The notes under the pieces are model-generated. The model was not told the DNA's origin and ran no database searches. It worked only from the letters and a program-made list of their open reading frames with translations. A program made the position numbers and the translations under genes. Shown here one piece after another: positions 1,502 through 47,338 of a stretch of DNA of 59,786 nucleotides; positions within the stretch are counted from its first letter, which is position 1, and the number at the start of each line of letters is the position of its first letter. Origin of the DNA: Candidatus Daviesbacteria bacterium GW2011_GWA1_41_61. GTDB taxonomy: Bacteria; Patescibacteriota; Microgenomatia; Daviesbacterales; UBA10151. The stretch spans positions 115,707 through 175,492 of the forward strand of contig LCBT01000001.1 of NCBI GenBank assembly GCA_000997385.1, read 5' to 3'.

Positions 1502-2128
1502 CTATTTTTTTAACTTTACTAACTTTAACATTCCTAAACTGAAAGTTTTGACTAAACTCACCTTAAAACCTAAACCTTCTGCCATATCTTCCAAAAGAGT
1601 GCCGTTAAAACTTTGCACATGAACATGTTTCCAGACTGGATAGCGGAGATTCCAGATAAACCAAATTACTTTAAACAGTAGATTATCAGTGGGGATTAAA
1701 ATCACTGCGTAACCATTCTTTTTCACCACCCGGTAAATCTGGGCTAAAACTTTCTGGGGGAAATCTACATGTTCAATCATCTCTATACAAAAAGCAGCCT
1801 CAAAGAAGTTATTTTTAAAGGGAAGTTTTTGAGCATCTCCCACTACAAAATAACCATTTTTTATTCTTTTTTTGGCCTTTTCAATAGCTTTTGGGGAAAT
1901 ATCCAAACCATAGATCTTATCAGCCCCAGTCCAATTAACAATTTTTTGAGTCAGTAGTCCGCTATGACAACCGATATCCACTATTTTACCGTTAACAGGG
2001 GTGGTTATTTTTGACAATTCATTAAATCTTCGCCAGTGCCAAAATTTCTGAAAAACATTTTTCTTTATAGCCAGATCATAATGATCAGGGGAAACACCTT
2101 CATGTAATTGAAGTAATGTCTTAGCCAC
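1502..2128 (-). CDS. Class I SAM-dependent methyltransferase (Methyltransf_11-like), translationally coupled to the upstream GT-C gene
   Basis: 208-aa ORF. The GTG start at 2128 overlaps the TAA of 2121..4859 by 8 nt. Motifs: IVDIGCHSG, GDAQKLPF, IEMIEHV, VKKNG. Paralogous to 19292..19936 and 46715..47338. Confidence 0.8.
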   Translation of the reverse strand: MAKTLLQLHEGVSPDHYDLAIKKNVFQKFWHWRRFNELSKITTPVNGKIVDIGCHSGLLTQKIVNWTGADKIYGLDISPKAIEKAKKRIKNGYFVVGDAQKLPFKNNFFEAAFCIEMIEHVDFPQKVLAQIYRVVKKNGYAVILIPTDNLLFKVIWFIWNLRYPVWKHVHVQSFNGTLLEDMAEGLGFKVSLVKTFSLGMLKLVKLKK

Positions 2129-4859
2129 TTTTTCTTTCCCTTTCCCGCCGATTTTTGATCGACGCAGTTACACTAACACCTAAGAAGATGAGCAGAAAGG
2201 ATGTCACGGAAAGTATTATTCCCCAATTAACTTTGCTTTGAGGAGTAAAGATCAAATTTAAATTTGAAGACTGATCTTGAAGATAAAAACCATTCACCAT
2301 AGCATAAAAAGGTAGGTGGATGTTTCCTTCTATACCTTGGAGTTGCCATTGTGGATGATAATGATCGGTAAAAACTAACCAACGCCCTTTATCAGGTAGA
2401 CTTTTTATCTGATAGTGGGTAGGATTTATTTGCTGGTAATCAACTGGTAAAAAAGTTGTCGTTAACTTGTCGGATAACTTCTGCCAATCTTGGTCGTTCT
2501 CTATTTTGATAATAGGAAAACGATTCATCAGCGAATTAACGAGGTCTTGACTTTTAATCAATCTCTCTTCCGAAATTAGCGCTACAGCATTGACCATAGC
2601 GAAACCTACATTATTGACCAGTTCTATTTCGCTTTGGCCTTTTTTCAGTTCTAGAGGACCTATAATCTCCCAGGTAAATTTAGAGGGATGCTGATTAATC
2701 ATCGTTTTCTTCTGACCCTCTATCATTACTTTTATCCCCTGACTTTGACTACCTGTAGTAAACCTGACTCCCAGATAATATTTACCATCATCAGGGATAG
2801 GCAGTTCAAACTGGATCTTCTCACCAGTAATAGTGGAAAAAGCTACTCCTTGACCAAAATCAAATTCATAAGATCGGATATTTTGTTTTAATAAATCATA
2901 TTTCCAAGTCAAATAATCGCTACTACCTCTTAACATCCATTGATTGATTTTAGCCTTAGAGGGAGCAACCATTAAATCCTGATTCAAAGACATTATTAAA
3001 TCTCCCTCTCCTTTATTAACAAACACAATAGTTACTGCCTGAGGAGGGATATCTTTAAAGACACTGAGGTCAATACCTCCCTGCTCTAAGAAGACAAATC
3101 CTTGCCCTGCCAGGGAAAAATTACTGCTTTTAATTAAATGGCGGTAAATCTCCTCCCCTCCCACTACTAAATACATTTTTTCTTGGGCAAATATATGAGG
3201 TAGAGGATTATCAACCTGATAGGCACTAAAAGATAAGGGCCAAGAAAGCTTCTGCCAGAAAGGTAAAGTGGAGATAAGTTGTAAAAAGTTTTTCCTTTCA
3301 GCTTTATCTTCTTCGGTCCAGGTTTTTTTCCTTTCATTGTCGGGGAAAAAGACATATTTGACCCCCAATAATTTTAACCACTCCTTAAGCTGAGGTGACC
3401 TCAGATATTGAAAAAGGTCATATCTGCCGTCAATCATTGAGGCAAAAGGACGCTCTTGGTAAAGCAAGTTTGCCGAGAGTGCTGGCTTCTCCCAACTGGA
3501 AAAAGCTAGCGGCGGGCGTTCCTCAAACCATAAAGTCTGGTAAAAGGAAGTATCCTTAGATAAATTATGGTAAATTGTTTGAAAACTGCTTATCTCCCCG
3601 GGTTTACCTAAAGCGCCACTTAAACCTCCTCCCAGCGCAGGATAAATAAGCAAGATCAGATAAATATACAACCCAAGAAATATTAATACTTGCCACTTAA
3701 AGCGGATAATTTTCTCATTAATCTTCTCCCAACTTAACCCTAAAAGAACGCTGAAAACTAAAATTAAAGGAATATAAAATTTTGAAGAATCCCGAAAAGC
3801 CACACCTAAAGGTAAATAATTTACTGCCAGATTGTAAATCTCTCCTCCCGGAGGATTGCCCCCTTTGGCTAAAAATGCCAGTAGCAGCAAGAGTAAAACC
3901 AAACCAAGTTTAAATTTTCTCTGAAAGATTTTTTCACTTCTTAAAAAAAACAATCCGCTTAAAGTGATAAGTGGTAACAACCAAAAATAGACAGGAGCAG
4001 TTGATAATTTACCAAACTCATTGTTGGGGAAATGAGGCTGAAAAAGTAATAAACTATCAACAAAGGTAGGAAGATTTGCCCCACCTTCCAAAACAGTTCC
4101 TGCACCAAGGGCTGAATAGTTAGTTAAAAATGGGATAATCCAAAAAGCATTAAGCGCCGCTGCTGATAAGAAAAGTCCACACAAAAAGATTATCTTTTTT
4201 CTCTCCAGCAAACTTTCCCGGAAAGAAAAAAACCCGATCAGTTGCCAAAGTCCAACAAATAAAATCAAAATTAGAAAGATTCTTAGATCAGTATTAGAAA
4301 TTAAAAAAAATGTTACCAGAGCAAAAAGATAATTTCTTAAATTAGGTTTATTCCAACATTGTAAAAAGGCAAAAGCACTTAAAGGGAAAAATCCGTAAGC
4401 TAAAGCTACCCCAATTTGTCCTCCATCCAATAACATTAAAAAATAAGTATTAAAAGCATAAAGGAAACTGCCTATAAACCTCCCCCACCTGTTAACTGTT
4501 ACCTGTCCCAGAAAAACCCAGGCTCCAACAATGGATAAAATGGTGGCGGGAAAATAAAAAACCAACCTGATCAAAACTTCACTGCTCAGGTTAAATAAAT
4601 AAGCTAAGACTCCATAACTAAAGGTTGGTAAAAACAACCACAACAAGGAGGATTGAGGTTGGCCAAAGTTATCGTTTCTAAAGTTCCACAGTAGAGGCTT
4701 AGAAAAAAGCTCTTTTAGATTCTCAGTATAAAAATATGGTGCATCACCCCAAGACAATGGGCTACCAGTAAAAAAGGCTTGGTATATCAAAAGGTAAGGG
4801 ATCAAAAATCCTAAAAAAACAGTCACTATTTTAACTGTATTAATGAAAGGAGGTTTCAT
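2121..4859 (-). CDS. Large GT-C-type membrane glycosyltransferase, AftD/DUF3367-like
   Basis: 912-aa ORF. The N-terminal ~430 aa contain many hydrophobic segments, followed by a large soluble region and a terminal TM anchor (ILSVTSFLLIFLGVSV). The loop SWGDAPYFY...LLWNFRNDNFGQPQ resembles the AftD-type N-terminus. The C-terminal HYHPQWQLQG...VNGFYL resembles that of 21826..24918. Family call is by eye. Confidence 0.6.
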   Translation of the reverse strand: MKPPFINTVKIVTVFLGFLIPYLLIYQAFFTGSPLSWGDAPYFYTENLKELFSKPLLWNFRNDNFGQPQSSLLWLFLPTFSYGVLAYLFNLSSEVLIRLVFYFPATILSIVGAWVFLGQVTVNRWGRFIGSFLYAFNTYFLMLLDGGQIGVALAYGFFPLSAFAFLQCWNKPNLRNYLFALVTFFLISNTDLRIFLILILFVGLWQLIGFFSFRESLLERKKIIFLCGLFLSAAALNAFWIIPFLTNYSALGAGTVLEGGANLPTFVDSLLLFQPHFPNNEFGKLSTAPVYFWLLPLITLSGLFFLRSEKIFQRKFKLGLVLLLLLLAFLAKGGNPPGGEIYNLAVNYLPLGVAFRDSSKFYIPLILVFSVLLGLSWEKINEKIIRFKWQVLIFLGLYIYLILLIYPALGGGLSGALGKPGEISSFQTIYHNLSKDTSFYQTLWFEERPPLAFSSWEKPALSANLLYQERPFASMIDGRYDLFQYLRSPQLKEWLKLLGVKYVFFPDNERKKTWTEEDKAERKNFLQLISTLPFWQKLSWPLSFSAYQVDNPLPHIFAQEKMYLVVGGEEIYRHLIKSSNFSLAGQGFVFLEQGGIDLSVFKDIPPQAVTIVFVNKGEGDLIMSLNQDLMVAPSKAKINQWMLRGSSDYLTWKYDLLKQNIRSYEFDFGQGVAFSTITGEKIQFELPIPDDGKYYLGVRFTTGSQSQGIKVMIEGQKKTMINQHPSKFTWEIIGPLELKKGQSEIELVNNVGFAMVNAVALISEERLIKSQDLVNSLMNRFPIIKIENDQDWQKLSDKLTTTFLPVDYQQINPTHYQIKSLPDKGRWLVFTDHYHPQWQLQGIEGNIHLPFYAMVNGFYLQDQSSNLNLIFTPQSKVNWGIILSVTSFLLIFLGVSVTASIKNRRERERKSG

Positions 4860-4862
4860 AAG

Positions 4863-6392
4863 TTAGATAGGATACCTTTTTTGGACAATAAAGTCACCAA
4901 TTTTTTCTTGGTGGGAAACTTTAGTAAAATAACTTTCCTCCCGTAAGATGTTTTCAATCAAAGAATCCCTGATTCCCCGGGTAGGTTCGATTATTAAAAA
5001 TCGGTTAGAAGGAAGTGTTGATTTGGCTGTTACTACCTGTAAATTTCCTGGGTATCCAGAGGCTGCCTCCCCTCCCCAGATAGGTAAATAGCCATACTTA
5101 CCTTTCCCATACCACTGGAAGAGGTAACTCCAGGTAGTGTTGATGGAAAAAGGCATGGTCACAGCATAAACGGTAAATTGTTGCCCCGAAGATGCTTGGT
5201 AAATATAGTCGAGTACTTTCTTTTCATCGGATAAAAGCATCCCGCTTTGAACATTGATGGTTGACATAGATCCTTTGCTGTTGATAGAAGTTATCAGCAT
5301 CAGATTGGATATGAGGGGAATAATTATTAACAAAATAGCCGCTGCATTGACCCTTTCCCAAACCTGGGTTAGCAGAAAACTTACTCCAATAAGTAAACTG
5401 ATTGAGGCTCCCACACTATAATAATAAAGCGGGGTGGGAGTAGTATTATTATAATAAGGTATAGTGCCGCTTAGAAACCAAACCACTAAAAATAAGGTTT
5501 TCAGACGGGAAGACTTCTTTATCAGCAGAACCAAAGATATAGCTATTAACAAAACCAGTGAAACTCCAGTTAAAGAATTCTCCGATAGTAAATTATCTCC
5601 TACTAAACGGTGGCTGATCAAATAGATATTGTCTAAAATTTGTTTCAAAGACACTTCCAAGGTACCTGACTGAGACAATAAATTAGAAAAAACAGCCACA
5701 GAGCGGAAGTGAAACTTTATCTCCGCTGCAATAAAGGTGGCGGTGGTTAAGGCAAAGGCTAAGATAGATAGCAGCCATACCTCTTTGTTTATTTTAGGTA
5801 AAGTTTTTCTAAAAATTAACAGTAGTAAGGCCAGTGGTATCAGCAAGGAGGTTAAAACAAACTCAAATTGGATAGATAATCCTAGCCCTGCTAAAGCTAA
5901 TATTAAACCCCTTGGCTCTTTCTTAAAAAAAAGCAACGCTAAGCCAAGGTAAAAAATAGTGACTGTCACCACTGCCAACGAAGGATGGTTGAAATATAAA
6001 GCATACTGAGTTTGCTCAAAGGAGAAGGCAAAAAACAGGGCTGAAAGTAGTCCCACCCGTTTATTAAAAATAACTGTTCCTACCCCAAATACTAAAAATA
6101 TAGTTCCGGCATTAATGATTCTTAAAAATGCTGCCACGAACTTCGGATCTCCACCTCCTAGATAATAAAGCGGAGCATAAAGATAGTAATAAAGAGGCCC
6201 GTGAAACCACCCATCAACACTAGTCGGCGGACCAACCACTCTGAACTCACCGAAAACAATCTCTAAAGAGGCAAAAGCATCCCGAGCCTGATCGAAACCA
6301 AAATAAATGTTGTTAGGAAAGTATAAAAAACGTAAAGTTAAGGCTAATACAAAGATTATGAAAAGTAGTAGGAGTATTTTCTTGTTTTGCAT
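4863..6392 (-). CDS. PMT_2/ArnT-like (GT39/GT83-type) GT-C membrane glycosyltransferase
   Basis: 509-aa ORF with ATG at 6392. Loop-1 motif FGFDQARDAF is followed by GPPTS..HGPLYYYLYAPL and many TM segments. It is a strong paralogue of 8640..10127 over its whole length, for example NTTWSYLFQWYGKGKYGY and FLIIEPTRGIR. Confidence 0.75.
   Translation of the reverse strand: MQNKKILLLLFIIFVLALTLRFLYFPNNIYFGFDQARDAFASLEIVFGEFRVVGPPTSVDGWFHGPLYYYLYAPLYYLGGGDPKFVAAFLRIINAGTIFLVFGVGTVIFNKRVGLLSALFFAFSFEQTQYALYFNHPSLAVVTVTIFYLGLALLFFKKEPRGLILALAGLGLSIQFEFVLTSLLIPLALLLLIFRKTLPKINKEVWLLSILAFALTTATFIAAEIKFHFRSVAVFSNLLSQSGTLEVSLKQILDNIYLISHRLVGDNLLSENSLTGVSLVLLIAISLVLLIKKSSRLKTLFLVVWFLSGTIPYYNNTTPTPLYYYSVGASISLLIGVSFLLTQVWERVNAAAILLIIIPLISNLMLITSINSKGSMSTINVQSGMLLSDEKKVLDYIYQASSGQQFTVYAVTMPFSINTTWSYLFQWYGKGKYGYLPIWGGEAASGYPGNLQVVTAKSTLPSNRFLIIEPTRGIRDSLIENILREESYFTKVSHQEKIGDFIVQKRYPI
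5090..5141. repeat. Left arm of a 52-nt inverted repeat, 48/52 identical to 9849..9900
   Basis: The reverse complement of 5090..5141 is aacactacctggagttacctcttccagtggtatgggaaaggtaagtatggct. Positions 9849..9900 read aacactacctggagttaccttttccagtggtatggaaaagggcagtatggct. I counted 4 mismatches by hand. Confidence 0.85.
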
Positions 6393-6400: not shown

Positions 6401-7252
6401 CTAATAACCGACTTTTTGCCAAGGCCAATATTTCCTCTTTAATTTTTTTAATTGTGTTTCAATGATAGCTCTGATGAAATAACGGGAGGGCATTTTCTCC
6501 CAGGGTGAAGCAACCGCAGATGGAGTTTGTTGAGAAAAAACTTCTGGATATTGGAAATCTTTAGGAAAAGTTAAACCAATTTCATATTTAAACTTGTGGC
6601 TTCTTTTGGGAACTTTTAAATCACTCTGACGGGATGATGATCTTAGTATATTGGTAAAATGCATATAGGGAGCATCGATGAATTTACGGTTTCGTTTAGG
6701 CCTTTGTTGGATTAAAGTTCCATCTTTATCATAAAGGCCCTGCTGACCATGAGGCTTGGCAAAATGTAAACCAGGAATTCCTCTTTTCATGGCCCGGATA
6801 TTGACATGACCATGATGTTCATCAATCTGATACCTGCCTGCCGATTCCTCTTGATAATGGTAAACATCGCCGATAACGTTAAAATAAGGAGAAACGATAC
6901 TTTCTAGAACGTCTCCTTCCCTTTGGATAGTATTTACCACTTCTTTAATTGATTTTTCCCACCACACCTCATCTCCATCGAGGATCATAAACCAATCACT
7001 TTTGGTTTGCTGGAGCATCTGCTGGCGAACTTTAGTAAACTCCTCGGGATCAACTTCTCCCACCTCTTTAAACTCCACTTTATCTCCCTTGATATTTTGA
7101 ATCTGTTTAATAATTTCTACTGTCTTATCGCTGCTACCGGTATCCCAAAGTAAAACCTTATCCACAAAATCCGCCACCGACATAACGGCATACCAAAGAT
7201 ACTTCTCTTCATTTTTAACTAAGGTATGTACCCAAATATTTTTCTTGCTCAC
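6401..7252 (-). CDS. GT2-family glycosyltransferase
   Basis: 283-aa ORF. The GTG start at 7252 is preceded by AAGGAG with a 6-nt spacer (reverse complement of 7253-7270: tcaagaaaggagataaaaGTG). N-terminal VHTLVKNEEKYL...LLWDTGSSDKT, and the DxD-like ILDGDEVW. Confidence 0.75.
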   Translation of the reverse strand: MSKKNIWVHTLVKNEEKYLWYAVMSVADFVDKVLLWDTGSSDKTVEIIKQIQNIKGDKVEFKEVGEVDPEEFTKVRQQMLQQTKSDWFMILDGDEVWWEKSIKEVVNTIQREGDVLESIVSPYFNVIGDVYHYQEESAGRYQIDEHHGHVNIRAMKRGIPGLHFAKPHGQQGLYDKDGTLIQQRPKRNRKFIDAPYMHFTNILRSSSRQSDLKVPKRSHKFKYEIGLTFPKDFQYPEVFSQQTPSAVASPWEKMPSRYFIRAIIETQLKKLKRKYWPWQKVGY

Positions 7253-8522
7253 TTTTATCTCCTTTCTTGAATTGATAGATTACCCAAACAGCAGGAACCA
7301 CAAAATTAAAAATATTACTAAAAAGGATCGTTAAGGAGGCACCTAGAATTCCCCATTTTGATATTAAGACCCATCCTAAAACTGCAGTGATTACCAGTTG
7401 CCCCAAAGCAGTCCAGGTAAAAAGCCGTGGTTTGGAAAAATAATAAAAGATTGCCTGATGGACAGGCAAAGATAAAAGAAAGACTAACTGGGCAATAAAT
7501 AAAATAATAAACGGAGTGACACTAGCTCTATAATCCTGACCATAAATTAAAGGGATAAAGTAAATCATCAAGGGGAGAAGTATAACTCCTCCTGTAGACA
7601 ATCCCAGTACTAAAAGTTGTAATTTTTTTAGATAGGTTATGGCTTTTTGTTGGCTGTCTAAACTACTCAGCTTAGGAGCAACAACCGTAGCTAAAGCAAA
7701 GACGAGTTGAGGCACTACTATAGTAAGCTGGACAGCCGCTGCATAAATTCCCACCTCAGTAGTGGTCAAAAGCCTGGCAGAGATAAAAGTATCCAGTCTG
7801 GAACCTATGGCTGTTAAAATTCCCACCAAAGCTACCCACTTACTATAATGGAGTAATTCCCTGCTTACTGACCGCTCCTGTTTAACAAACAAAAAGTTTG
7901 GGAGCAGGAATAGAGTAATAAAAAAGCCCAAAAAAGGAACAGTGATATAAGTAATTAGTGTTGTTTGAAGGTTGAAGATACCAAAGGCAGTTAAAGCTAA
8001 TATCGCTGTAAGTCTTAAACTGTTCATACTAATATTTACCAAACTCCAAGCCCAAAATTTTTGATAAGCCTGGATAGCATGAGTAGTTAAAGAAAAGAGC
8101 AGAGCTCCTCCAACTCCGATTAAGGCTAGGCGGAAGGGCTCAATAAATTCAGGCTTTAAAAAGATTGAATGGACAATTAGCGGGGCTAAAACCCAGCCCA
8201 GAGTAAGGATTGTAAACCAAACAGCTAACTTCACCTCTAAGCCAAGTTTGATAAACCTTAAAGCGGTATCTGATTTTGCAGGCTTACCCACAAAACGGAT
8301 GACGGCAGTATCAATTCCCAAATCAGCAATATCAGCAATAGTAGTAATGGCGGCGATGGCTACAGCCAAAGTTCCATAAACACTGGGGCCCAAGCTTCTG
8401 GCTACTATAATATAAAAAAATAGGCCTAATAAACCGTTAATTGCTGTCCCCCCCGAAGTTATTAAAAAATGATTAATTGTTTTGGAGGTAACAACTGACT
8501 TTAAATCCCTAATAAAAAACAT
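7215..8522 (-). CDS. Wzx-like oligosaccharide/polysaccharide flippase (MOP superfamily)
   Basis: 435-aa ORF with about 12 hydrophobic segments. The N-terminal GTAINGLLGLFFYIIVARSLGPSVYGTLAVAIA...DLGIDTAVIRF is typical of Polysacc_synt proteins. Its 3' end overlaps the downstream GT2 by 38 nt. Confidence 0.75.
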   Translation of the reverse strand: MFFIRDLKSVVTSKTINHFLITSGGTAINGLLGLFFYIIVARSLGPSVYGTLAVAIAAITTIADIADLGIDTAVIRFVGKPAKSDTALRFIKLGLEVKLAVWFTILTLGWVLAPLIVHSIFLKPEFIEPFRLALIGVGGALLFSLTTHAIQAYQKFWAWSLVNISMNSLRLTAILALTAFGIFNLQTTLITYITVPFLGFFITLFLLPNFLFVKQERSVSRELLHYSKWVALVGILTAIGSRLDTFISARLLTTTEVGIYAAAVQLTIVVPQLVFALATVVAPKLSSLDSQQKAITYLKKLQLLVLGLSTGGVILLPLMIYFIPLIYGQDYRASVTPFIILFIAQLVFLLSLPVHQAIFYYFSKPRLFTWTALGQLVITAVLGWVLISKWGILGASLTILFSNIFNFVVPAVWVIYQFKKGDKSEQEKYLGTYLS

Positions 8523-8639: not shown

Positions 8640-10127
8640 ATGAAGTTTTTGATAGCAATTTTTTTATTAGGGATAGCCTTAAGGTTTTTATATTTTCCTG
8701 ATAATGTTTATTTTGCCTATGATCAAGCCCGTGATTCCTATACTGCTTTAGAAATTTTAAAGGGAGATTTAAAATTAATTGGTCCACCCTCTTTTGCCAG
8801 TGATAAGCTCTTCCCTGGTCCCTTAATTTTTTATATTTATGCCCCTATTTATTGGCTGTTTGATAAAAATCCAGAAGCTATTTCAGCTTTTTTGCGTTTT
8901 TTTAACTCTTTGGGGATACTTTTAACCTTTGCCCTGGGAACGATTATATTTAACAAAAGAGTTGGTATACTGGCAGCTTTGCTTTTTGCCTTCTCATATG
9001 AACAAAGCCAATATGCCCTTTTTATCTCCCACCAACCACAAGCTGTGATTACTGTCTTACTTTTTTATCTGGGCTTAAGTTGGTTTATTTTTAAAAGTAA
9101 TCCCAAAGGATTGATATTGGCAGCCTTGGGCTGGGGGTTATCCATTCAGTTTCATTATGGTTATATCCTTTTAGGGATTCCTCTTCTCTCAACTATTTTA
9201 ATTTTTAGAAAAACACTTCCCAAACCTCAACTTAAATTTTTACTTTTAGCTGTAATCTCTTTAATTTTCACTTTATCCACCTTTATCATCACCGAAGCCA
9301 AGTATCATTTCTTTTCCTCCTATATTCAAAATTCCTCTTCCTCTTTTCATCTCTATCCCAAAGAAACCCTCTTTATCATTAACCGCTTTTTGCATGATAT
9401 TTTTATCGCCAATTACCGTCTCACTCCCTTTATAGCTGCAGTGACCATCATTATCTACACCTTAATCATGATCTTTAAAAAAGCTCTCCGCCAAAAGTTA
9501 CTATTTTTAACTATCTGGTTTTTAGGAGGGCTTACTCCCTATTTAATCTCCGGAGTTCCCAGTTACTATTATTCTGCTGCAGCTTCAGTTAGTTTACTAA
9601 TAGCTATTGCTTATCTAATAAGTCAACTCCTTCCCAAATACCAACTACTAAGTCTAGCCTTATTACTGATCATTATTGCTAACAACTTAAACCAAATTAT
9701 GACTATTAATAAAACTGGGGTCAACTCCGATATGGTTATCCAACCGGGGATGCTAATCTCAGATCAAAAAAAGGTCCTTGATTATATTTATTCTCAGGCT
9801 TCAGGACAACCATTTTCCATCAATACTCTAACTATTCCTTTAAATGTTAACACTACCTGGAGTTACCTTTTCCAGTGGTATGGAAAAGGGCAGTATGGCT
9901 ATATCCCAAACTTTGGAGGCGAAGCAGCAGAAGGATACTTGGGGAACTTTCAGGTAATCAAAGCCCGCTCTAATCTTCCAACTTTACAGTTTTTGATTAT
10001 TGAACCCACTTTAGGGATCAGGGAGGCATATCGAGATAACTTTTTTAGGGAAGAAAGTTACTTCACCAAAGTGACAGAAGAAAAAAAGTTCGGCTATTTG
10101 ACTGTCCAAAAACGTCAGAAATATTAA
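8640..10127 (+). CDS. PMT_2/ArnT-like GT-C membrane glycosyltransferase, inverted paralogue of 4863..6392
   Basis: 495-aa ORF. Motifs FAYDQARDSY, GPPSF...PGPLIFYIYAPIYW, FNKRVGILAALLFAFSYEQSQYAL and NTTWSYLFQWYGKGQYGY. Confidence 0.75.
   Translation: MKFLIAIFLLGIALRFLYFPDNVYFAYDQARDSYTALEILKGDLKLIGPPSFASDKLFPGPLIFYIYAPIYWLFDKNPEAISAFLRFFNSLGILLTFALGTIIFNKRVGILAALLFAFSYEQSQYALFISHQPQAVITVLLFYLGLSWFIFKSNPKGLILAALGWGLSIQFHYGYILLGIPLLSTILIFRKTLPKPQLKFLLLAVISLIFTLSTFIITEAKYHFFSSYIQNSSSSFHLYPKETLFIINRFLHDIFIANYRLTPFIAAVTIIIYTLIMIFKKALRQKLLFLTIWFLGGLTPYLISGVPSYYYSAAASVSLLIAIAYLISQLLPKYQLLSLALLLIIIANNLNQIMTINKTGVNSDMVIQPGMLISDQKKVLDYIYSQASGQPFSINTLTIPLNVNTTWSYLFQWYGKGQYGYIPNFGGEAAEGYLGNFQVIKARSNLPTLQFLIIEPTLGIREAYRDNFFREESYFTKVTEEKKFGYLTVQKRQKY
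9849..9900. repeat. Right arm of the 52-nt inverted repeat, 48/52 identical to the reverse complement of 5090..5141
   Basis: See 5090..5141. Identity extends to synonymous codon positions, unlike the neighbouring conserved protein blocks. Confidence 0.85.
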
Positions 10128-13454: not shown

Positions 13455-13462
13455 CAACTGGA

Positions 13463-27312: not shown

Positions 27313-27313
27313 T

Positions 27314-28267: not shown

Positions 28268-28285
28268 GCTTTTAATCTGCCACAA

Positions 28286-40872: not shown

Positions 40873-43583
40873 TAATTCTCCACAAATTTTTTAATCAGTC
40901 CCCACTTTTTTATCTCTTCCAAATTTAAGTTTTCCAGTTTAACCGATTGCACCTCTAATTTAACTGGCGCATTGACCGCACTAATTGTCAGATCCTTCAT
41001 CACTATCCCCCCTGGGTTTAATACCAGTTGATAGGTATTCACATTATCAAAACTACCCACTAAAACTGTCCTTTCCCCTCCGCCTTTATTTGTACTCCAG
41101 CTTACCTTAAGCTCAAGCAAAGGAGCTATCTTAGAAAGCAATAAATTCAGTTCATCCCGGGTGCTAATAAAATCAAAAGGGCTTTTGATAAAAGATAGAG
41201 CTTTTTGCGGGTCAATATTATCGTAATCTGAAGCTACAACCTCAACTTCACTTAAACTTGGGGCATCATTGGAAAGTGTGGCCGTAATATCCATCCTGAC
41301 ATATCGTCCAACTACCTCATCAAAATCCTCCACCACCACCTCTCCATCCTGTCTCTCGAGACCGTTAACCACCCTTTTGACCTCTATCCAACTTTCCTTA
41401 TCGGAAGAAACATCAATAGCATAAGAGATGGGGGTGAGAGTATGATTCCAATTAGTCCAGACAACTTTACTAATTTTCTTCACTGCTCCTAGATCAATGA
41501 TTACTTGCTCATGTCTTTTTTCATGCCAGTAAATTCTATGACCACGCCAACTAGTCACTGGATCGTCATCGACGATATTGTATATTTCTTGATACTTCCA
41601 CTGCGACAAACTGGTTGCCTTGACCGCTTTATAATACTCCTGTCGGGAAAGTAAATAATCAACCACCTGTTGCTTTTGGGCAGAAAGATATAAACTGCTT
41701 TTTTGCCCACTTTGAGAATAGGGAAAAACAATCTGATCAGTCCGAGGAATTACTTTCGTCTGTAAAATTAACAACATAGGTGTTAAAGGATGGGTTTTAA
41801 TTTCACCAACTAAAGGAATACCGGAGGCAGCCCCAGGTTGAAGCGATAAAATCTCTGCCTTTGAACCATCTTTGACTAAATTCCTCATCGCCTCAGTGGT
41901 ATTAATTAACCCCTGCTCCCCATAATAAAAACTGTAAAGGCTATCCACTTTTATTTCCTTATCTGCCAGTTTAGATAAAAGTTCATCAAAGTTATCAATT
42001 AGGGACAAGTCGTAGCGGTCAACACCGTAGTAAATAGCTAGGGCAGTTGATTCAGGCATAGAACCAACGGAAAAAAAGTTCCTAAACTGAAATTTATAAA
42101 AATTATCATCTTTAATATCAAAATAAAAAACTGCTCCCTTTTCAATACGGGGAACAAATTTCTTCAAATCCTGATAAAATTTCCGGGTCGGTTGACTGAT
42201 ATCCGCAACAACCTGTCTTTGACGATTTACCTCTAGATAAAGATTATTTCCTAATAATAAAATTAGCGGTAAGGCAGCCCAAAGGTGAGCATATTTACTC
42301 CCGAGGAAGAGTGAGCCCTTTTTTCTTCCCAGGAAAGGAGATTTTAAAATTTTTTCAAATAAAACAAAGCTTATACCTCCAGCAATGATACTGTAACCGA
42401 CAAAGCTGTAAGTTAAATAACGGTGAGTTGTACTGAAGATTGACTCCTGATACTGGATGAAATAGCCAAAAACTTGTGAAGCGAGCATCGCCAAACCAAA
42501 AAGCAAAGCCAAGGCTAAATCTTTGTGAGTTTTCCACAACGTTATAGCTAAAGCAATTATTAATATTGGCAAGTACAACCCCAAAGCTCCGGAGATAAAA
42601 TCACTTTCTGATCTATACCAAAATAAATTTTTACTGATAAATAATTTATTTAAAAAATATAACCCACTAAAAAAAACTACCGAAGCCATCTTGATTTTGA
42701 ATCCTGCTGAAAAAAATCTTAACAATAACCAAGACAAAACTATAAATATCAGCAGCAGTAAAAGCTGTTCTTTGGGAAGGTGGGCCAAAACATATTTTAA
42801 CTGCCAGACATTTGGTATCAAAGCATTACCTAAAGTGGCAAAAAAACTGGCCAAAACTTCGACTTTACCTTGAAGTAGATTGTTTATTACCAAGCCCAAA
42901 CCAGAGCTCCCTACCGTCTCACTTAAATAACGGTTATAAAAAAGAAACCAAAAAGGAATTTGCCGTAAAATTAACCAGGGTATTTGTCTAAACTGCCAAA
43001 ATTTAACAGTCAGAAGCAAATCTAGTACTAAGATGGGAATAATCAGACTGTGGGAGCGGATAAAGACAAACTCTACTGCCCCATAAAAAAGCAGTAAGCT
43101 TAGAAAATAATACCAAAACTTGGGAGGACTTCTTAAAAATTTCACTAAGGCCCAAAACGAGAGTAAGGCAAAAATTAGGCCAAAGTTGGTTTGCCAAGAG
43201 TTACTGATACGAAGCATAGTGTCTGAACCGATATAGCCAGCAGCATAAACCAAGGTTGATACAAAACCGGCTTTTTTACTTTGGAAAAGCTGAGTGGCAA
43301 AAAGATAAAAAGAGGCGGCAGAAAGGTAATAAGCAATCAGTCCAACTAAAAAATAACCAGTTGGGTTTAAACCAAAGATGGGAAAAAATGGGACAAAGGG
43401 GGTAACCAAATATTTATATGGGCCCTGACCGATAATTCCCTCTCCATAACTTCCAGCTGGACCTTGCGGATTTTGCAGCTTAAAGATTAAAGCTGAATCA
43501 TCCTGCCAAAAATACATCCCCAAAGTTTGGCCGTAAGCAATAAAAATAATGAAGATAACTACTAAAATAGCCCAAAGTTTCAT
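40872..43583 (-). CDS. GT-C membrane glycosyltransferase (FxQDD loop) with an internal F5/8 type C (discoidin) domain and an extra C-terminal domain
   Basis: 903-aa ORF. Loop YFWQDDSALIF. The discoidin pattern DDDPVTSWRGH...QVIIDLGAVKKISKVVW...YAIDVSSDKESWIEV...GRYVRMDIT...SLSEVEVV is encoded at about 41235..41600. Confidence 0.65.
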   Translation of the reverse strand: MKLWAILVVIFIIFIAYGQTLGMYFWQDDSALIFKLQNPQGPAGSYGEGIIGQGPYKYLVTPFVPFFPIFGLNPTGYFLVGLIAYYLSAASFYLFATQLFQSKKAGFVSTLVYAAGYIGSDTMLRISNSWQTNFGLIFALLSFWALVKFLRSPPKFWYYFLSLLLFYGAVEFVFIRSHSLIIPILVLDLLLTVKFWQFRQIPWLILRQIPFWFLFYNRYLSETVGSSGLGLVINNLLQGKVEVLASFFATLGNALIPNVWQLKYVLAHLPKEQLLLLLIFIVLSWLLLRFFSAGFKIKMASVVFFSGLYFLNKLFISKNLFWYRSESDFISGALGLYLPILIIALAITLWKTHKDLALALLFGLAMLASQVFGYFIQYQESIFSTTHRYLTYSFVGYSIIAGGISFVLFEKILKSPFLGRKKGSLFLGSKYAHLWAALPLILLLGNNLYLEVNRQRQVVADISQPTRKFYQDLKKFVPRIEKGAVFYFDIKDDNFYKFQFRNFFSVGSMPESTALAIYYGVDRYDLSLIDNFDELLSKLADKEIKVDSLYSFYYGEQGLINTTEAMRNLVKDGSKAEILSLQPGAASGIPLVGEIKTHPLTPMLLILQTKVIPRTDQIVFPYSQSGQKSSLYLSAQKQQVVDYLLSRQEYYKAVKATSLSQWKYQEIYNIVDDDPVTSWRGHRIYWHEKRHEQVIIDLGAVKKISKVVWTNWNHTLTPISYAIDVSSDKESWIEVKRVVNGLERQDGEVVVEDFDEVVGRYVRMDITATLSNDAPSLSEVEVVASDYDNIDPQKALSFIKSPFDFISTRDELNLLLSKIAPLLELKVSWSTNKGGGERTVLVGSFDNVNTYQLVLNPGGIVMKDLTISAVNAPVKLEVQSVKLENLNLEEIKKWGLIKKFVEN

Positions 43584-44354: not shown

Positions 44355-44391
44355 CAAATTATCACTCCCTAAAACCCTTCAAAGCACCACC

Positions 44392-44420: not shown

Positions 44421-44435
44421 TATTGTCATAATCAT

Positions 44436-46718
44436 TTAATATCCTGAGCCTAAGTTGGGGACAAAGACGTCGGGGTCAACTTTTAACTTTTGGCTGTCTT
44501 GGGGATTAGTTGTTAGAGTAACTTCAGTTTTACTTTGGTAAATCACCAGATCATCTAACCAAAAATCACTTGTGGAAAAATTAGATACCTGAAAACTAAC
44601 TGTAGCCAACTGAGCATTGGCCGGAGCTCTCCCTACAACCTCCAGTTTCTGCCACTCCTTAGGCCCAAAATAACGGGGAGATAAATTGGTGCTTAAACTC
44701 TCAGTACCCTCATCCCAAACTGTAGGCTTATTTTGATAAAAATCCAACCTTAAAAACCCATCCCGCCTTTTTTGTTCTAAACTAGTTATCCCTTTGACCC
44801 AACCCTCTGCCTTATAAACCTCACCAGCTTTGACAGTAAAAACAGGTGAGACCCACATGACTACCGGAAAGGTGGGAATAATAGCTTTAATCTCCACTGA
44901 CCCATTTTTTTCCCTTCCCTCTTTCTCATCCCAGACTAAATTATCTCCCTGACCCCCAAAACCATCAACTTTTTTAAAGCTGCCCATTCTCTTATCAAAT
45001 CCTTCCTGACTAATCTCTTCCCACTCCAGATTAACTTTGGAAGGCACAGTAGCAAAAAAATAGTTGTTCTCCACCGCCTGCCAGGGCTTCACTTGAGAAC
45101 AAACAGCAGAAGCAAACAACTCTTTAGCTGCTAAACTAACAAAGACGTTGTTAGAAATTTCTTTTGGTTTCTGCCAAAAACCAGCTTTAGTCATCCACCA
45201 GACTGAATTTTGATCACCTACCACATCTAATCCTACTAATACATAGTCAGCTTTCTCCTCTTGTAATTCAGCCAGGCTATAACTTGACTCAATATTAATA
45301 GGAATAAAGTTTAATTTCTTATTAACATCTATAGAAGGCAAGGCAAATAAAATATATTTATCGGTCGGATGAGCTGCCACAGTTTTACCTTCTAAAATAT
45401 TCTGGCTTAAACACTGACGCATCGAAGTGATATTCCAAGGTTTCATATAAGATAAAGTATGAATAACCGAGTTTTTAGTTGACTGGAAAAGTATGCTCAC
45501 AACAACCAGTACAAAAAATAGCATTGCCAGGTAGGAATTTTTAAGATATTTTTTTAAAAAATACCATCCACTCGCCAATCCTACTCCACCCATCAAAGCA
45601 AAAAAGGGAATAATACTGACAAAGTTACGCGGGTAAAACCAACCGCGGGTTAAATATAAAAAGTAGTACAAATAAACAATGATCATACTTAAGACCAAAA
45701 AGGTGGAGAACCGATACTTTAACAACCCCACTACTATTCCCAATAAAACTATCCCCGCCACAGCAGGGGTTAAAACTATTTGGTAAAAAAAAGATAGACC
45801 GGTCAAACTAAATTTATTAAAACCAAAGCCGTAAAGATGGGACACCCGGGTGATAGTTTCCGTAAACTTCTGCCAATGGGTCAGCGGCCCGATATTGACC
45901 AATACCACTGTCAAAACTAAAGACAAAACACAAAAAATAACTTTCTGGGATAGAAAAGTAGTAATTTTTCCCCGCCAACCTCTTGCCCTGACAGTATGAT
46001 ACAAATGGATCAAGGCCAAAGGTAAGAGACTAAAAAATTGTAATTTGGACGATATGGCCAGCCCAACACCCAAACCGCTTAGTATATATAACTTTAAAGT
46101 GGGACGATCCTTCAGTATAGAAACAATAAAGAAAGCCAACAACAAAAAGAAACTGCTATAAGCATCTGGTAAATCAACTTGGCTGCTACTCACCGCCCGC
46201 AGATTAACAGCCAGGATAGATACAGATAAAAGGGCAACTAAACGGGAGTTAAATAGCTTTTTACCAATCAGATAAGTTAAAACCATGGTCAAAATACCTA
46301 TCACAGACGTCAGGTAGCGGCTGAAATACATGATTGTCACATCACTTCGGTTTAAAATATAGTTTTCAAAAACTTGAGGTAATTTATCTAAGTTGGACAA
46401 CACCACATCGGGGTTAGACAACAATAACTTAATCCACAATAGGGGAACAAATATTAAAATTAGAAAAATCAACTCTACTGTCGGAATTAAGGCTGGATAG
46501 TGGTAATGAGGCAGATCCAATGTACGGTTTATAAACATATACCAAGCTGAGGAATAACCAGCTTTACCTTCATCAGGATGATAAGGACTATACCCGGGGT
46601 AAACACCTAATACCCGAAGCAGTATGCCAGTGGTCAAAACAGCTAAAAGTAACAATTGCAGGCGGTCTTTTTTGAGGCTGCGGATATTTTTTTTAACTCT
46701 TTTAAGAAGATACTTCAT
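44436..46718 (-). CDS. PMT_2/ArnT-like GT-C membrane glycosyltransferase with a C-terminal CBM4_9-like carbohydrate-binding module
   Basis: 760-aa ORF. Motifs PGYSPYHPDEGKAGY and FSRYLTSVIGILTMVLTYLIGKKLF. The C-terminus GSVEIKAI...VKAGEVYKAEGWVKG...APANAQLATVSFQV...FWLDDLVIYQ is CBM-like. ATG 46718 overlaps the upstream methyltransferase TGA (ATGA). Tandem paralogue of 47380..49620. Confidence 0.65.
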   Translation of the reverse strand: MKYLLKRVKKNIRSLKKDRLQLLLLAVLTTGILLRVLGVYPGYSPYHPDEGKAGYSSAWYMFINRTLDLPHYHYPALIPTVELIFLILIFVPLLWIKLLLSNPDVVLSNLDKLPQVFENYILNRSDVTIMYFSRYLTSVIGILTMVLTYLIGKKLFNSRLVALLSVSILAVNLRAVSSSQVDLPDAYSSFFLLLAFFIVSILKDRPTLKLYILSGLGVGLAISSKLQFFSLLPLALIHLYHTVRARGWRGKITTFLSQKVIFCVLSLVLTVVLVNIGPLTHWQKFTETITRVSHLYGFGFNKFSLTGLSFFYQIVLTPAVAGIVLLGIVVGLLKYRFSTFLVLSMIIVYLYYFLYLTRGWFYPRNFVSIIPFFALMGGVGLASGWYFLKKYLKNSYLAMLFFVLVVVSILFQSTKNSVIHTLSYMKPWNITSMRQCLSQNILEGKTVAAHPTDKYILFALPSIDVNKKLNFIPINIESSYSLAELQEEKADYVLVGLDVVGDQNSVWWMTKAGFWQKPKEISNNVFVSLAAKELFASAVCSQVKPWQAVENNYFFATVPSKVNLEWEEISQEGFDKRMGSFKKVDGFGGQGDNLVWDEKEGREKNGSVEIKAIIPTFPVVMWVSPVFTVKAGEVYKAEGWVKGITSLEQKRRDGFLRLDFYQNKPTVWDEGTESLSTNLSPRYFGPKEWQKLEVVGRAPANAQLATVSFQVSNFSTSDFWLDDLVIYQSKTEVTLTTNPQDSQKLKVDPDVFVPNLGSGY

Positions 46719-47338
46719 CGCTTTTTAAAAATACCCAATATCTCACTCCCAAAACCGATAAACTGTAGCTTCACAGCAGTGGTTTGGAGAAAAAGCTTAG
46801 TTAATTTCTGTTTGCTGAAGGGAATATCCAGATGTTCATCAACATTATGACGTCCGGTTAAAAGTTTCCTCACCCAGGAGAATCGCACAACAGGATGCAA
46901 TTCATTGGGCACTGTAGCTAAAACTAGTCCCCGCTTTTTGGCTACCCTAATTGATTCTTGAGCTACAATCTCAGGATCACTGACATGTTCCAAGATATCA
47001 GATAACAGCACAATATCAAAAGAGTTGCTTTTAAAAGGCAGCTTTTTAGCATCCCCCACTTGCACACAACCTTGAGGCAACTTCCTCTGGCGGAGGTTTT
47101 CCTTGGCTTTATCAATATCGGTTTTGGAGATATCAATCCCTACCACATCCACCCCGCGCTCCTTTAAAGGAATCAGGATAATCCCGCTGTTACAACCTAT
47201 ATCCAACACCCGTTTACCGGAATAATCCACAACCTCAAGCCAAAAGTTCAATCTCCGGTTATGAAAGATCCGCTCAAAGATATTTCCATGAAGCCGGGCT
47301 TCATTTAAATCATAGTTAAATCCATCTGAACCGCTCAT
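46715..47338 (-). CDS. Class I SAM-dependent methyltransferase, translationally coupled to the downstream GT-C gene
   Basis: 207-aa ORF. Motifs VLDIGCNSG, GDAKKLPFKSNSFD, SDILEHV and AKKRG. Paralogue of 1502..2128 and 19292..19936. Confidence 0.8.
   Translation of the reverse strand: MSGSDGFNYDLNEARLHGNIFERIFHNRRLNFWLEVVDYSGKRVLDIGCNSGIILIPLKERGVDVVGIDISKTDIDKAKENLRQRKLPQGCVQVGDAKKLPFKSNSFDIVLLSDILEHVSDPEIVAQESIRVAKKRGLVLATVPNELHPVVRFSWVRKLLTGRHNVDEHLDIPFSKQKLTKLFLQTTAVKLQFIGFGSEILGIFKKR

Follow-up and report, generated by a model that had tools for sequence, protein, structure and literature searches.

In a 59,786-nucleotide stretch of DNA from Candidatus Daviesbacteria bacterium GW2011_GWA1_41_61 (hereafter the window), three similar methyltransferase genes each overlap a gene for a GT-C-type membrane glycosyltransferase. 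The original prediction was that methyltransferase and GT-C enzyme form a reusable two-gene module. Do these genes belong together, and if so, what might the methyltransferase do?

Three related methyltransferases

The open reading frame coordinates of the three core methyltransferase genes were confirmed:

1502..2128, minus strand: soluble subfamily methyltransferase, 208 aa, GTG start; Pfam Methyltransf_11, 1.4e-22; no transmembrane segment
19292..19936, plus strand: subfamily methyltransferase, 214 aa; Pfam match
46715..47338, minus strand: subfamily methyltransferase, 207 aa; Pfam match

These are paralogous class I enzymes of 207-214 aa (Pfam Methyltransf_11/25/31, E 1e-19 to 1e-24), with pairwise identities of 36% (1502 versus 19292), 32%, and 29%, near full length in two of the three comparisons. 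Alignment bore out the mutual similarity and common motif order noted originally: all three share D56, G58, C59, and G62 of motif I, and further D81, D103-A104, L107-P108-F109, E124-H125-V126, and K141-K142-x-G144. The class I fold and SAM-binding motifs are intact, and the AF2 model of the 19292 enzyme has this fold (pLDDT 90.2). Orthologues of the 1502 enzyme occur in 65 genomes at 40-60% identity and those of the 46715 enzyme have 55-82% identity; the 19292 enzyme has 332 homologues, most of 205-225 aa, from Microgenomates/Daviesbacteria. With no transmembrane segment or signal peptide predicted in any of the three, they are on sequence grounds cytoplasmic proteins, in line with the proposed cytoplasmic-face placement. 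A conserved Trp-rich amphipathic helix (residues 155-172) suggests interfacial binding.

None of the eight methyltransferases in the window reached the curated NCBIfam cut-offs for UbiE, tRNA, or rRNA methyltransferases, best scores being far lower (e.g., 54 versus 216 bits for UbiE); they are thus not housekeeping quinone, tRNA, or rRNA enzymes. For the 46715 enzyme, the second-best NCBIfam match was the mycofactocin oligosaccharide methyltransferase MftM (58 bits, cut-off 200); the phospholipid N-methyltransferase PmtA scored 47 bits (cut-off 390). Foldseek and PDB matches were generic class I methyltransferases: RebM/AtmM, among the best Foldseek matches at TMq 0.62-0.67, stood beside Coq5, phosphatidylethanolamine N-methyltransferase (8YS9, TMq 0.64), and others. 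Because sugar O-methyltransferases thus stand among non-sugar enzymes, the fold does not single out a substrate. The likeness to RebM/AtmM and MftM lies in the class I fold; scores far under family cut-offs, equally good matches to non-sugar methyltransferases, and a different genomic context set the window enzymes apart.

GT-C partners and gene junctions

The GT-C genes flanking the core methyltransferases are:

2121..4859, minus strand: GT-C-fold partner of AftD-like architecture, 912 aa; transmembrane domain, beta-sandwich domains, final transmembrane helix
17869..19299, plus strand: PMT_2 plus TMEM260-like (PF11028, former DUF2723) GT-C, 476 aa; Pfam match
44436..46718, minus strand: PMT-type GT-C downstream of the 46715 methyltransferase, 760 aa; Pfam PMT/PMT_2, PMT 5e-10
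47380..49632, minus strand: paralogous PMT-type GT-C upstream of the 46715 methyltransferase, 750 aa; Pfam match

The reported stop/start overlap was present at all three junctions: the stop of 2121..4859 overlaps GTG 2128 (GTGGCTAA), that of 17869..19299 overlaps ATG 19292 (ATGAATAA), and that of 46715..47338 overlaps the ATG of 44436..46718 (ATGA). Overlaps are 4-8 nt in all three pairs; the GT-C gene comes first in two and the methyltransferase gene in one.

The partners had been assigned to three GT-C families. Pfam supported PMT_2/TMEM260 for one and PMT/PMT_2 for another. The protein encoded by 2121..4859 had no significant Pfam or PDB sequence match, although PF10131 is present in some homologues; the best Foldseek match of its AF2 model (pLDDT 90) was mycobacterial AftD (6W98, E 2e-13, TMq 0.50), followed by STT3/PglB/DPY19, so that the AftD-like label holds at the level of fold. 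The putative carbohydrate-binding module (CBM) of 44436..46718 had no support from Pfam, which gave no match for the C-terminal 261 aa. This protein resembles that of 47380..49632 (32% identity, BLASTP 5.8e-103). BLASTP found no mutual similarity among the three partner GT-Cs, so the pairs did not arise by duplication of a whole pair.

Other genes of the window

Five further methyltransferases align with the core three over the core fold only. They and other relevant genes are:

666..1493, minus strand: Methyltransf_23 methyltransferase (Pfam) directly downstream of 1502; N-terminal CxxC..CxxC; C-terminal hydrophobic segment, one transmembrane segment
11354..11953, plus strand: other class I methyltransferase, 5 nt after the PIG-V/PMT_2-like GT-C 10134..11348
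11943..12704, minus strand: other class I methyltransferase with a C-terminal hydrophobic segment, 12 nt after GT2 12717..13457
12717..13457, minus strand: short GT2 of polyprenyl-phosphate glycosyltransferase type, upstream of methyltransferase 11943, 246 aa; Pfam
26599..27345, minus strand: other class I methyltransferase, lying between and overlapping both GT2 27314..28285 and GT-C 24926..26614
57035..57754, minus strand: other class I methyltransferase with an N-terminal hydrophobic segment, overlapping GT2 57747..58475 and GT4 55860..57041
57747..58475, minus strand: GtrB/DPMS/ArnC-like polyprenyl-phosphate glycosyltransferase, 242 aa; PDB sequence matches GtrB 5EKP 3e-17, DPMS 5MLZ 4e-17, ArnC 1e-13
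58459..59499, minus strand: generic GT2, 346 aa; Pfam, PDB matches to generic GT2 enzymes
7215..8522, minus strand: Wzx-type flippase (Pfam Polysacc_synt 4e-18), first in the operon ending with methyltransferases 1502 and 666
34240..34605, plus strand: DUF2304 small membrane protein (Pfam 2e-17), after GT2 33558..34235

All five methyltransferases adjoin GT2 or GT-C genes as described originally, and the expected terminal hydrophobic segments, in at least three of them, were found in those at 666, 11943, and 57035. Parts of this layout recur elsewhere: L088 and L091 carry a matching gene set (a protein of ~900 aa, Wzx, GT2, and two methyltransferases), the 666/1502 pair is adjacent in L091, the GT2-DUF2304 pair occurs in L091 and L093, and relatives of GT2 58459..59499 are the conserved downstream neighbour of 1502-type methyltransferases (46 of 63 loci).

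Adjacency within the window and in other genomes

One explanation of the pairs would be coincidence in a crowded island, i.e., ordinary glycan-tailoring methyltransferases packed end to end with GT-C genes, as is usual in CPR genomes, and not specifically coupled to them. GT-C-like genes make up 19 of the 44 genes in the window, 16 of 31 same-strand neighbour pairs overlap, 27 of the 31 lie ≤20 nt apart, and shuffling the gene order placed all three methyltransferases next to a GT-C gene in 32% of trials. In such a GT-C-rich, overlap-rich setting three adjacencies prove little, and adjacency within the window is no more than chance. Overlap of stop and start, formerly taken as a mark of the methyltransferase/GT-C pair, is the norm of compact operon structure here; it may serve co-expression.

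Other genomes tell against coincidence. The neighbourhood set for the 1502 clade covered 65 species-level CPR genomes (64 loci upstream, 63 downstream), with GT-C-like genes recognized by a crude proxy (≥380 aa and ≥7 hydrophobic segments). A same-strand GT-C-like gene lay immediately upstream in 50 of 64 loci (78%) and a GT2 gene immediately downstream in 47 of 63 (75%), against local gene densities of 27% and 24%, respectively (binomial p ~1e-17 each). Of the 50 upstream genes, 43 are homologous to the window's AftD-like protein or to YfhO or PMT_2 proteins verified by Pfam; the other seven rest on the size and hydrophobicity proxy. In 45 loci a same-strand GT-C-like neighbour was ≤20 nt away. 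Background genes of the same loci had a GT-C neighbour in only 40% of cases. In a count over 28 loci, a GT-C-like gene adjoined the methyltransferase in 19, versus 42 of 164 for the other genes there (p = 3e-5); for generic methyltransferases the figure was 5 of 40. All these p-values overstate independence, because the genomes compared are related.

Genomes that diverged deeply thus retain the methyltransferase gene directly next to GT-C and GT2 genes, extending the predicted adjacency beyond its source. The fixed two-gene module fared less well. In the 1502 clade the conserved unit is GT-C, methyltransferase, GT2, in that order, with the GT-C family interchangeable (YfhO-like, PMT_2-like, or AftD-like, depending on the locus) and the GT2 a generic cytoplasmic enzyme, not of GtrB/DPMS type. 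The 19292 clade is accompanied by a TMEM260-like GT-C and by a YfhO-related protein of 650 aa, with the gene order varying; one locus (L338) has a GT2-TMEM260/PMT_2 fusion followed by the methyltransferase. The 46715 clade is often beside FAD oxidase and B12-radical-SAM genes, with a PMT gene at a distance of one or two genes. For all three methyltransferases, synteny with the GT-C partner found in the window was seen elsewhere: the 2121..4859 pair is kept in L183, L093/L094 have an overlap like that of 17869..19299 and 19292, and L087 keeps the order PMT_2-MT-PMT-F5/8 around a 46715-type gene. Adjacency is loosened in Blackburnbacteria and broken in Curtissbacteria, where the methyltransferase has no GT-C nearby and its neighbours are GDSL lipase, Crp regulator, and transketolase genes. 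These breaks and the changing GT-C family speak for coincidence; the position-specific enrichment in 65 genomes, together with the gene fusions described next, makes it very improbable.

Fusions

The hoped-for GT-C/methyltransferase fusions were found in a profile search over 1.84 billion representative proteins, in which the subfamily, mainly from CPR, formed ~407 clusters (50% identity) at E ≤1e-30. Three YfhO-type GT-Cs (P0215, P0304, P0316) carry the methyltransferase domain at their cytoplasmic C-terminus; the P0304 gene is an unbroken reading frame in its contig, within a type IV pilus operon. Two proteins are GT2-MT fusions (P0233, P0243) and a third, P0287, has by eye an N-terminal GT2 remnant without Pfam match. 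These GT2 domains match window GT2s 12717 and 57747 by BLASTP, and the one in P0243 also matches the dolichyl-phosphate mannose synthase of Pyrococcus (5e-33). Other partners are PAP2_3, a lipid-phosphate phosphatase-like domain (P0219), LPG_synthase_TM, a flippase-like domain (P0355), and second methyltransferase domains in P0208 (the 666/1502 pair, Pfam-checked) and P0207 (seen by BLASTP and as two profile stretches only). Most fusions look independent, because the best BLASTP match of each fused domain was a stand-alone methyltransferase, except for P0208 and P0248, which are mutually closest. Judging from these sequences, the domain has apparently been fused several times independently to lipid-phosphate or lipid-sugar membrane enzymes and to neighbouring methyltransferase types.

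The fusions also bear on the substrate. One alternative places the methyltransferase before the lipid stage: it would methylate a soluble nucleotide sugar that the neighbouring GT2 then uses, and the GT-C would be a distant downstream user. The most constant neighbour in the 1502 clade is indeed a soluble generic GT2, the enzymes lack transmembrane segments, and their closest structural relatives include RebM/AtmM, which act on soluble glycosides. The identifiable non-MT fusion partners, however, are all membrane lipid-phosphate or lipid-sugar enzymes (YfhO, DPMS-like GT2, PAP2_3, LPG_synthase_TM), a tether at the GT-C C-terminus is hard to explain for an enzyme of nucleotide sugars, and the Trp-rich segment may bind interfaces; we consider this alternative unlikely.

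Equally doubtful is a methyl acceptor other than a sugar: a protein (the GT-C or its own acceptor, e.g., pilin), the polyprenyl phosphate carrier, or the head group of a membrane lipid. The PAP2_3 and LPG_synthase_TM fusions, the fusion inside a pilus operon, and the likenesses to PmtA and 8YS9 fit this alternative. But those likenesses are far under cut-offs and no better than those to sugar methyltransferases, MftM included, and glycosyltransferases are the dominant partners. Pilin N-methylation is normally the job of prepilin peptidase, and the pilus operon of P0304 has one.

Discussion

The best reading is that the methyltransferase belongs to a flexible GT-C/methyltransferase/GT2 cassette and not to a strict two-gene module. 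Because in CPR bacteria it lies beside the membrane enzymes for synthesis and use of lipid-linked sugars, and in other organisms is sometimes fused to them, it probably methylates such sugars before they reach the surface; fusion to a polyprenyl/dolichyl-phosphate-mannose-synthase-like GT2 fits this. We therefore lean, with modest confidence, towards an accessory enzyme that works in the cytoplasm close to the membrane and serves GT-C-mediated surface glycosylation dependent on polyprenyl phosphate. On the inner side of the membrane, the GT2 would load a sugar onto polyprenyl phosphate or lengthen a glycan already linked to lipid. The methyltransferase, held there by its partner and perhaps also by the Trp-rich helix, would O-methylate this sugar with SAM; a flippase would then export it, and the GT-C would pass it to a surface acceptor. 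Given the generic downstream GT2 of the 1502 clade, a growing lipid-linked oligosaccharide fits at least as well as a monosaccharide donor. As one fusion lies within a type IV pilus operon, the acceptor could be a pilin or another surface protein.

The cassette resembles three-component systems (GtrA/GtrB/GtrC-type; CsbB/GtcA/YfhO) in its polyprenyl-phosphate GT2 (57747), small membrane proteins by GT2 genes, and YfhO/PMT_2 GT-Cs. Three-component systems can include enzymes that modify the polyprenyl-phosphate-sugar donor (ORF13 homologues, DprE1/E2), extra enzymes tied to modified pentofuranose donors (Xylf, Araf; PMC11127046). The literature found describes no methyltransferase component: the word is absent from PMC8035078 and PMC7389260, and PMC11127046 uses it once, for an unrelated WbdD-like terminator. 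The cassettes described here differ in having a methyltransferase as the recurrent extra part, sometimes fused to GT2 or GT-C.

WbdD-type chain-terminating or capping methyltransferases and large MT-GT2 proteins likewise combine Methyltransf_11-type and GT2 domains in glycan synthesis, and the profile search also recovered many MT-MT-GT2 proteins of 800-2800 aa. Their match covers the methyltransferase core only and leaves out the N- and C-terminal regions specific to the subfamily. Unlike WbdD, the window enzymes are single-domain proteins of 207-214 aa without kinase or coiled-coil ruler, and their distinctive partners are GT-Cs.

Also close by description are the SAM-dependent methyltransferases of archaeal N-glycosylation, AglP of Haloferax volcanii and its Halobacterium homologue VNG1065C. 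AglP helps assemble a dolichol phosphate-linked glycan that the GT-C enzyme AglB transfers outside the cell (PMC4335974, PMC3871713). It, too, is a small soluble SAM methyltransferase in a glycosylation cluster, acting with a lipid-linked glycan and GT-C transfer. The residue that AglP methylates is a hexuronic acid in an oligosaccharide bound for N-glycosylation by an STT3-type enzyme, whereas the partners here are bacterial YfhO, PMT/TMEM260, and AftD-like GT-Cs, immediately adjacent or fused to the methyltransferase. The cassette would be a variant of a logic known from the donor-modifying enzymes of three-component systems and from Haloferax, where methylation of a lipid-linked glycan has been described.

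Gene content of the window

Pfam, NCBIfam and hydrophobicity analysis show that the window (59.8 kb, G+C 35-40%) is a glycosylation super-island, with genes densely packed on both strands and close homologues in Candidatus Daviesbacteria and other Microgenomates (CPR). It encodes eight class I SAM methyltransferases (MTases), seven GT2 enzymes, a GT4, a flippase of Wzx type and a small DUF2304 membrane protein, besides 19 GT-C-like proteins that are large and multi-TM (PMT_2, PMT, TMEM260-like, YfhO, PIG-V-like and, in several cases, of no family). All of the predicted ORFs were present. No tRNA or Rfam elements were found in the 59.8-kb window, and its two largest GT-C-like proteins had no NCBIfam family. 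The genes most relevant here are:

1502..2128 (-), MTase 1502
2121..4859, GT-C partner of MTase 1502, AftD/STT3-like by fold
17869..19299, GT-C partner of MTase 19292
19292..19936 (+), MTase 19292
44436..46718 (-), PMT-type GT-C partner of MTase 46715
46715..47338 (-), MTase 46715
47380..49632 (-), second PMT flanking MTase 46715
666..1493, 11354..11953, 11943..12704, 26599..27345 and 57035..57754, five further MTases
57747..58475 (-), GtrB/DPMS/ArnC-type GT2, matching GtrB (5EKP, 3e-17), DPMS (5MLZ, 4e-17) and ArnC
12717, 33558 and 43587, further short GT2 genes
34240..34605 (+), DUF2304 small membrane protein, candidate for the GtrA role
21434..21829, family-less ORF of 131 aa with 4 TM, candidate for the GtrA role
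Right end, PglF-like dehydratase, DegT aminotransferase, NifS/NifU and B12-binding radical SAM enzyme

A GtrA-type small flippase was not among the Pfam matches in the window. The DUF2304 gene lies directly 3' of a short GT2 gene, and the pair is kept at two loci in other genomes (L091, L093); its product is a candidate flippase or accessory subunit replacing GtrA. The genes at 53255..57041 (-) encode a PglF/CapD-like 4,6-dehydratase, an aminotransferase of DegT type and a GT4, an enzyme set that points to a biosynthetic route for a bacillosamine-like 4-amino-4,6-dideoxy-hexose. Among the window's genes, none was recognised as an initiating phosphoglycosyl transferase. The NifU and NifS (cysteine desulfurase) genes (49672..51306, -) are directly upstream of the PMT-MTase-PMT operon and divergent from the B12-binding radical SAM gene (51583..52983, +).

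Two GT-C-like multi-TM proteins, 36698..38755 and 40872..43583 (-), have F5/8 type C domains (discoidin, galactose-binding-like) at the C-terminus, an architecture that also adjoins PMT genes in L085, L087 and L335. Two GT-C pairs are paralogous: 4863..6392 (-) and 8640..10127 (+), which are divergent and 48% identical, and the two PMT proteins on either side of MTase 46715 (32% identity). The ORFs 13501..15450, 15409..17898 and 17869..19299 overlap on opposite strands (42 nt convergent, 30 nt divergent), and their starts, taken from longest ORFs, may be over-extended. The same caution may apply to the TTG or GTG starts of several ORFs, for example 26599..27345, which the original prediction had ended at 27312.

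Three related methyltransferases with GT-C partners of different families

MTases 1502, 19292 and 46715 share 36%, 32% and 29% pairwise identity (E 3e-42 to 3e-20), with near-full-length alignment in two of the three comparisons and with the common motifs originally attributed to them; the other five MTases align with them over the core fold only. All three contain a Methyltransf_11/25-type Pfam domain (80-86 bits, gathering cut-off 21.2). Among 66 sequences, residues of SAM-binding motif I and the strand-2 acidic residue are invariant or nearly so (D56, nearly invariant; G58, G62 and D81). The AF2 model of MTase 19292 (pLDDT 90.2) has a seven-stranded Rossmann-like fold, and a PDB fold search gave 1406 matches at E≤0.001, with the class I MTase fold in all of the best 50 listed. 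The three proteins are predicted class I SAM-dependent methyltransferases of the Methyltransf_11/25 type.

The modelled fold does not discriminate between substrates, because it matches generic class I MTases in the PDB that act on sugars and on non-sugars: the sugar O-MTases RebM and AtmM stand beside Coq5, phosphoethanolamine and phosphatidylethanolamine N-methyltransferases, and others. A non-sugar methyl acceptor, which some of these neighbours would fit, ranks below a sugar, the partners of the subfamily being predominantly glycosyltransferases. Subfamily-specific conservation is seen in an N-terminal helix (N28, H35), in the pair E124-H125 and at H176. A Trp/Phe-rich segment (F157, W161, W162, W164, W172), where AF2 confidence is somewhat lower, is also conserved and by inference might be a membrane-interface element. 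The MTases have no export signal.

A housekeeping role in quinone or RNA methylation, which had originally been named as a refuting condition, was rejected. None of the eight window MTases reached a curated NCBIfam threshold or was assigned a family; the best scores were far under the cut-offs for UbiE (54 vs 216 bits), UbiG (70.5 vs 103), RlmA (62 vs 303) and CmoB (28 vs 209), and likewise for BioC.

The overlapping junctions were as claimed (GTGGCTAA for MTase 1502, ATGAATAA for 19292 and ATGA for 46715), with the GT-C gene first in two cases and the MTase gene first in one. Pfam identified 17869..19299 as PMT_2 plus TMEM260-like (PF11028, formerly DUF2723), which agrees with its description as DUF2723-like. 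For 44436..46718, described as PMT_2 plus a CBM, the PMT/PMT_2 assignment held; the C-terminal domain has no Pfam match, and no CBM was matched by Pfam in this domain of either PMT paralogue. The protein 2121..4859 had no significant sequence-level match in Pfam or the PDB (nor did 21826..24918 in PDB searches). Its AF2 model (pLDDT 90.3) best matched mycobacterial AftD (E 2e-13, TMq 0.50), then STT3, PglB, AglB and DPY19, so that 'AftD-like' is correct for architecture.

The three partner GT-Cs have no BLASTP similarity to one another, and orthologues of each MTase elsewhere (40-82% identity) are much closer than its paralogues in the window. Recent duplication of a single MTase/GT-C unit within the genome was therefore rejected as the origin of the pairs. 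The five further MTases also adjoin GT2 or GT-C genes, as predicted, and three have terminal hydrophobic segments; 666..1493 is followed by a GT-C-like ORF that extends past the window start.

Conservation of gene context

Within the window, MTase/GT-C adjacency is not beyond chance. GT-C-like genes make up 19 of its 44 genes, and of the 31 same-strand gene pairs 16 overlap and 27 lie ≤20 nt apart; in shuffled gene orders all three subfamily MTases adjoined a GT-C in 32% of trials. Chance adjacency is ranked lower on the strength of other genomes, where the predicted pairing is conserved. The first sample covered 28 loci outside this genome; 19 of the 28 MTases had a GT-C-like neighbour (≥380 aa and ≥7 hydrophobic segments), compared with 42 of 164 other genes in these loci (Fisher p=3e-5); for generic Methyltransf_11 genes the count was 5 of 40.

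The second sample, obtained by scanning with a 1502-type protein alignment, comprised 65 usable loci in distinct species-level genomes, including Woese-, Davies-, Shapiro-, Blackburn- and Peribacteria. A GT-C-like gene lies immediately upstream on the same strand in 50 of 64 loci, and a GT2 gene immediately downstream in 47 of 63. Local densities are 27% for GT-C-like and 24% for GT2 genes, so that the two positions depart strongly from random (binomial p ~1e-17 each, genome relatedness ignored). The 50 upstream genes are of mixed families (YfhO-like ~24, PMT_2-like ~18, 2121..4859-like one, unassigned seven), and where a GT-C is missing a GT4 usually takes its place. In 45 loci a same-strand GT-C-like neighbour is ≤20 nt from the MTase. 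The conserved unit in the 1502 clade is therefore GT-C, MTase, GT2 in that order, with an interchangeable GT-C. Many MAGs with loci typical of CPR/Microgenomates (L001, L002, L005, L007 and many of L177-L239) are labelled 'uncultured Gammaproteobacteria' (one 'Clostridia'), labels that look unreliable.

In the 19292 clade the companions are a TMEM260-like GT-C and a YfhO-related protein of 650 aa, arranged in variable order (L088, L091, L093/94, L338); in Curtissbacteria the context is unrelated (GDSL lipase, Crp regulator, transketolase). At L338 (2932-4998) a single 688-aa protein joins a GT2 to a TMEM260_N/PMT_2 GT-C domain, a donor synthase fused to a transferase, and the 19292-type MTase follows 2 nt later.

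A single-protein scan of genome contigs with MTase 46715 gave 229 pattern matches and no relative. In a metagenome contig scan with the one usable motif of an alignment (A2), a generic one, 78 of the 80 loci carried generic MTases, and the two that belonged to the subfamily measured <2 kb. A genome contig scan with a 46715-clade alignment gave at least three relevant loci (L255-L257) among the matches listed. In the 46715 clade the order PMT_2-MTase-PMT-discoidin is kept in L087, around a 66%-identical relative, and the MTase-to-multi-TM overlap in MAGs labelled Anaerolineae. The NifS and NifU genes likewise precede PMT_2 in L087. In Blackburnbacteria and others the MTase adjoins FAD amine-oxidase-like and B12-radical-SAM genes, and PMT lies at a distance of one or two genes. 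The ~420-aa FAD amine-oxidase/NAD_binding_8 protein recurs beside orthologues in L081-L085, L335 and L336, and those in L081-L085 also have B12-binding radical SAM genes around them; of the two, only the B12-radical SAM gene is present in the window. This context may mark another type of tailoring, of sugars or of lipids.

Natural fusions

A search of 1.84 billion representative proteins with a subfamily profile gave 407 clusters at E≤1e-30. Several full-length matches were multidomain proteins, most of them checked with Pfam. MTase/GT-C fusions, a proposed check on the pairing, were found together with other fusions:

P0215, P0304 and P0316, YfhO-type GT-C with the MTase after the last TM helix
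P0233 and P0243, GT2-MTase; P0287, fragment whose GT2 remnant has no Pfam match
P0219, PAP2_3-MTase
P0355, LPG_synthase_TM-MTase
P0208, MTase-MTase; P0207, the same by BLASTP and profile stretches only; both mirror the adjacent 1502/666 window pair

The GT2 domain of P0243 resembles Pyrococcus dolichyl-phosphate mannose synthase (5e-33). Each fused MTase domain is closest to a stand-alone MTase and not to another fusion, except that P0208 and P0248 are mutual best matches, which argues for repeated and, in most cases, independent fusion. Read-through artefacts were rejected: an in-frame Met occurs at the junction in P0215 only, with none in P0304, P0316, P0233 or P0243, and in its contig the P0304 gene runs uninterrupted as one ORF, whose translation is exactly the fusion protein. 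The gene for this 963-aa YfhO-MTase (L095, 6001-8892) lies amid those of a type IV pilus operon (PilB/PilT-type ATPases, PilC, pilins, prepilin peptidase) and is followed by a TMEM260/PMT_2 gene, a setting that suggests pilins as one of the glycosylation targets.

Discussion

A functional association between these MTases and GT-C enzymes is well supported. In the most economical model, which includes the originally suggested methylation of a lipid-linked sugar, a GT2 would charge or extend a polyprenyl-phosphate-linked sugar at the inner membrane face, the MTase would methylate it, a flippase would export it, and the GT-C would move the methylated sugar onto a surface acceptor. This model is preferred because the identifiable fusion partners other than MTases are membrane enzymes with lipid phosphates or lipid-linked sugars as ligands, the MTases have no export signal, and SAM is cytoplasmic. 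Methylation of nucleotide sugars is ranked lower in view of these fusion partners. Within the lipid-linked model, DPMS-like fusions and the GtrB-like GT2-MTase pairs of the window favour a monosaccharide donor as methyl acceptor, and generic GT2/GT4 neighbours and the Wzx gene favour a growing oligosaccharide.

Methylation at the lipid-linked stage is established in archaeal N-glycosylation (AglP; PMC4335974, PMC3871713), and the window MTases are similarly encoded in a lipid-linked glycosylation cluster with a GT-C transferase. Putative AglP-like methylation of a sugar on a polyprenyl or dolichyl phosphate carrier has indirect support from the DPMS-like GT2 and YfhO fusions. In bacterial three-component systems, ORF13 homologues and DprE1/E2 are candidate accessory enzymes for modified pentofuranose donors (PMC11127046). 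The window resembles such systems in having a polyprenyl-phosphate GT2 (57747..58475) and GT-C transferases. WbdD-type enzymes differ in having a kinase and a coiled-coil molecular ruler, whereas the window MTases are single-domain proteins of 207-214 aa, all MTase fold. Terminators of the O-antigen type commonly combine MTase with GT2 domains. In the searchable literature we found no MTase described as a recurrent or fused partner of YfhO, PMT, TMEM260 or AftD-like GT-Cs, and no description of these CPR glycosylation islands.

Tentatively, and as a reading we hold more doubtful than probable, the MTases might be an undescribed fourth component of bacterial three-component glycosylation: lipid-linked-monosaccharide O-MTases docked on or fused to the polyprenyl-phosphate-sugar synthase or the GT-C. 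The flipped donor would then be polyprenyl-P-(O-methyl)hexose, and CPR pili or surface proteins would carry methylated O-glycans.

CPR/Patescibacteria are episymbionts that contact their hosts via their surface and pili, and to our knowledge their envelope chemistry is barely described. In Microgenomates, GT-C enzymes occupy very large islands; the present one has 19 GT-C-like genes in 60 kb. The natural DPMS-MTase and YfhO-MTase fusions are ready constructs for biochemistry without cultivation. If the model is correct, lipid-linked donors, and hence surface glycans, would be methylated, making them more hydrophobic and more resistant to glycosidases, and the three-component paradigm would gain a new kind of donor-tailoring step.
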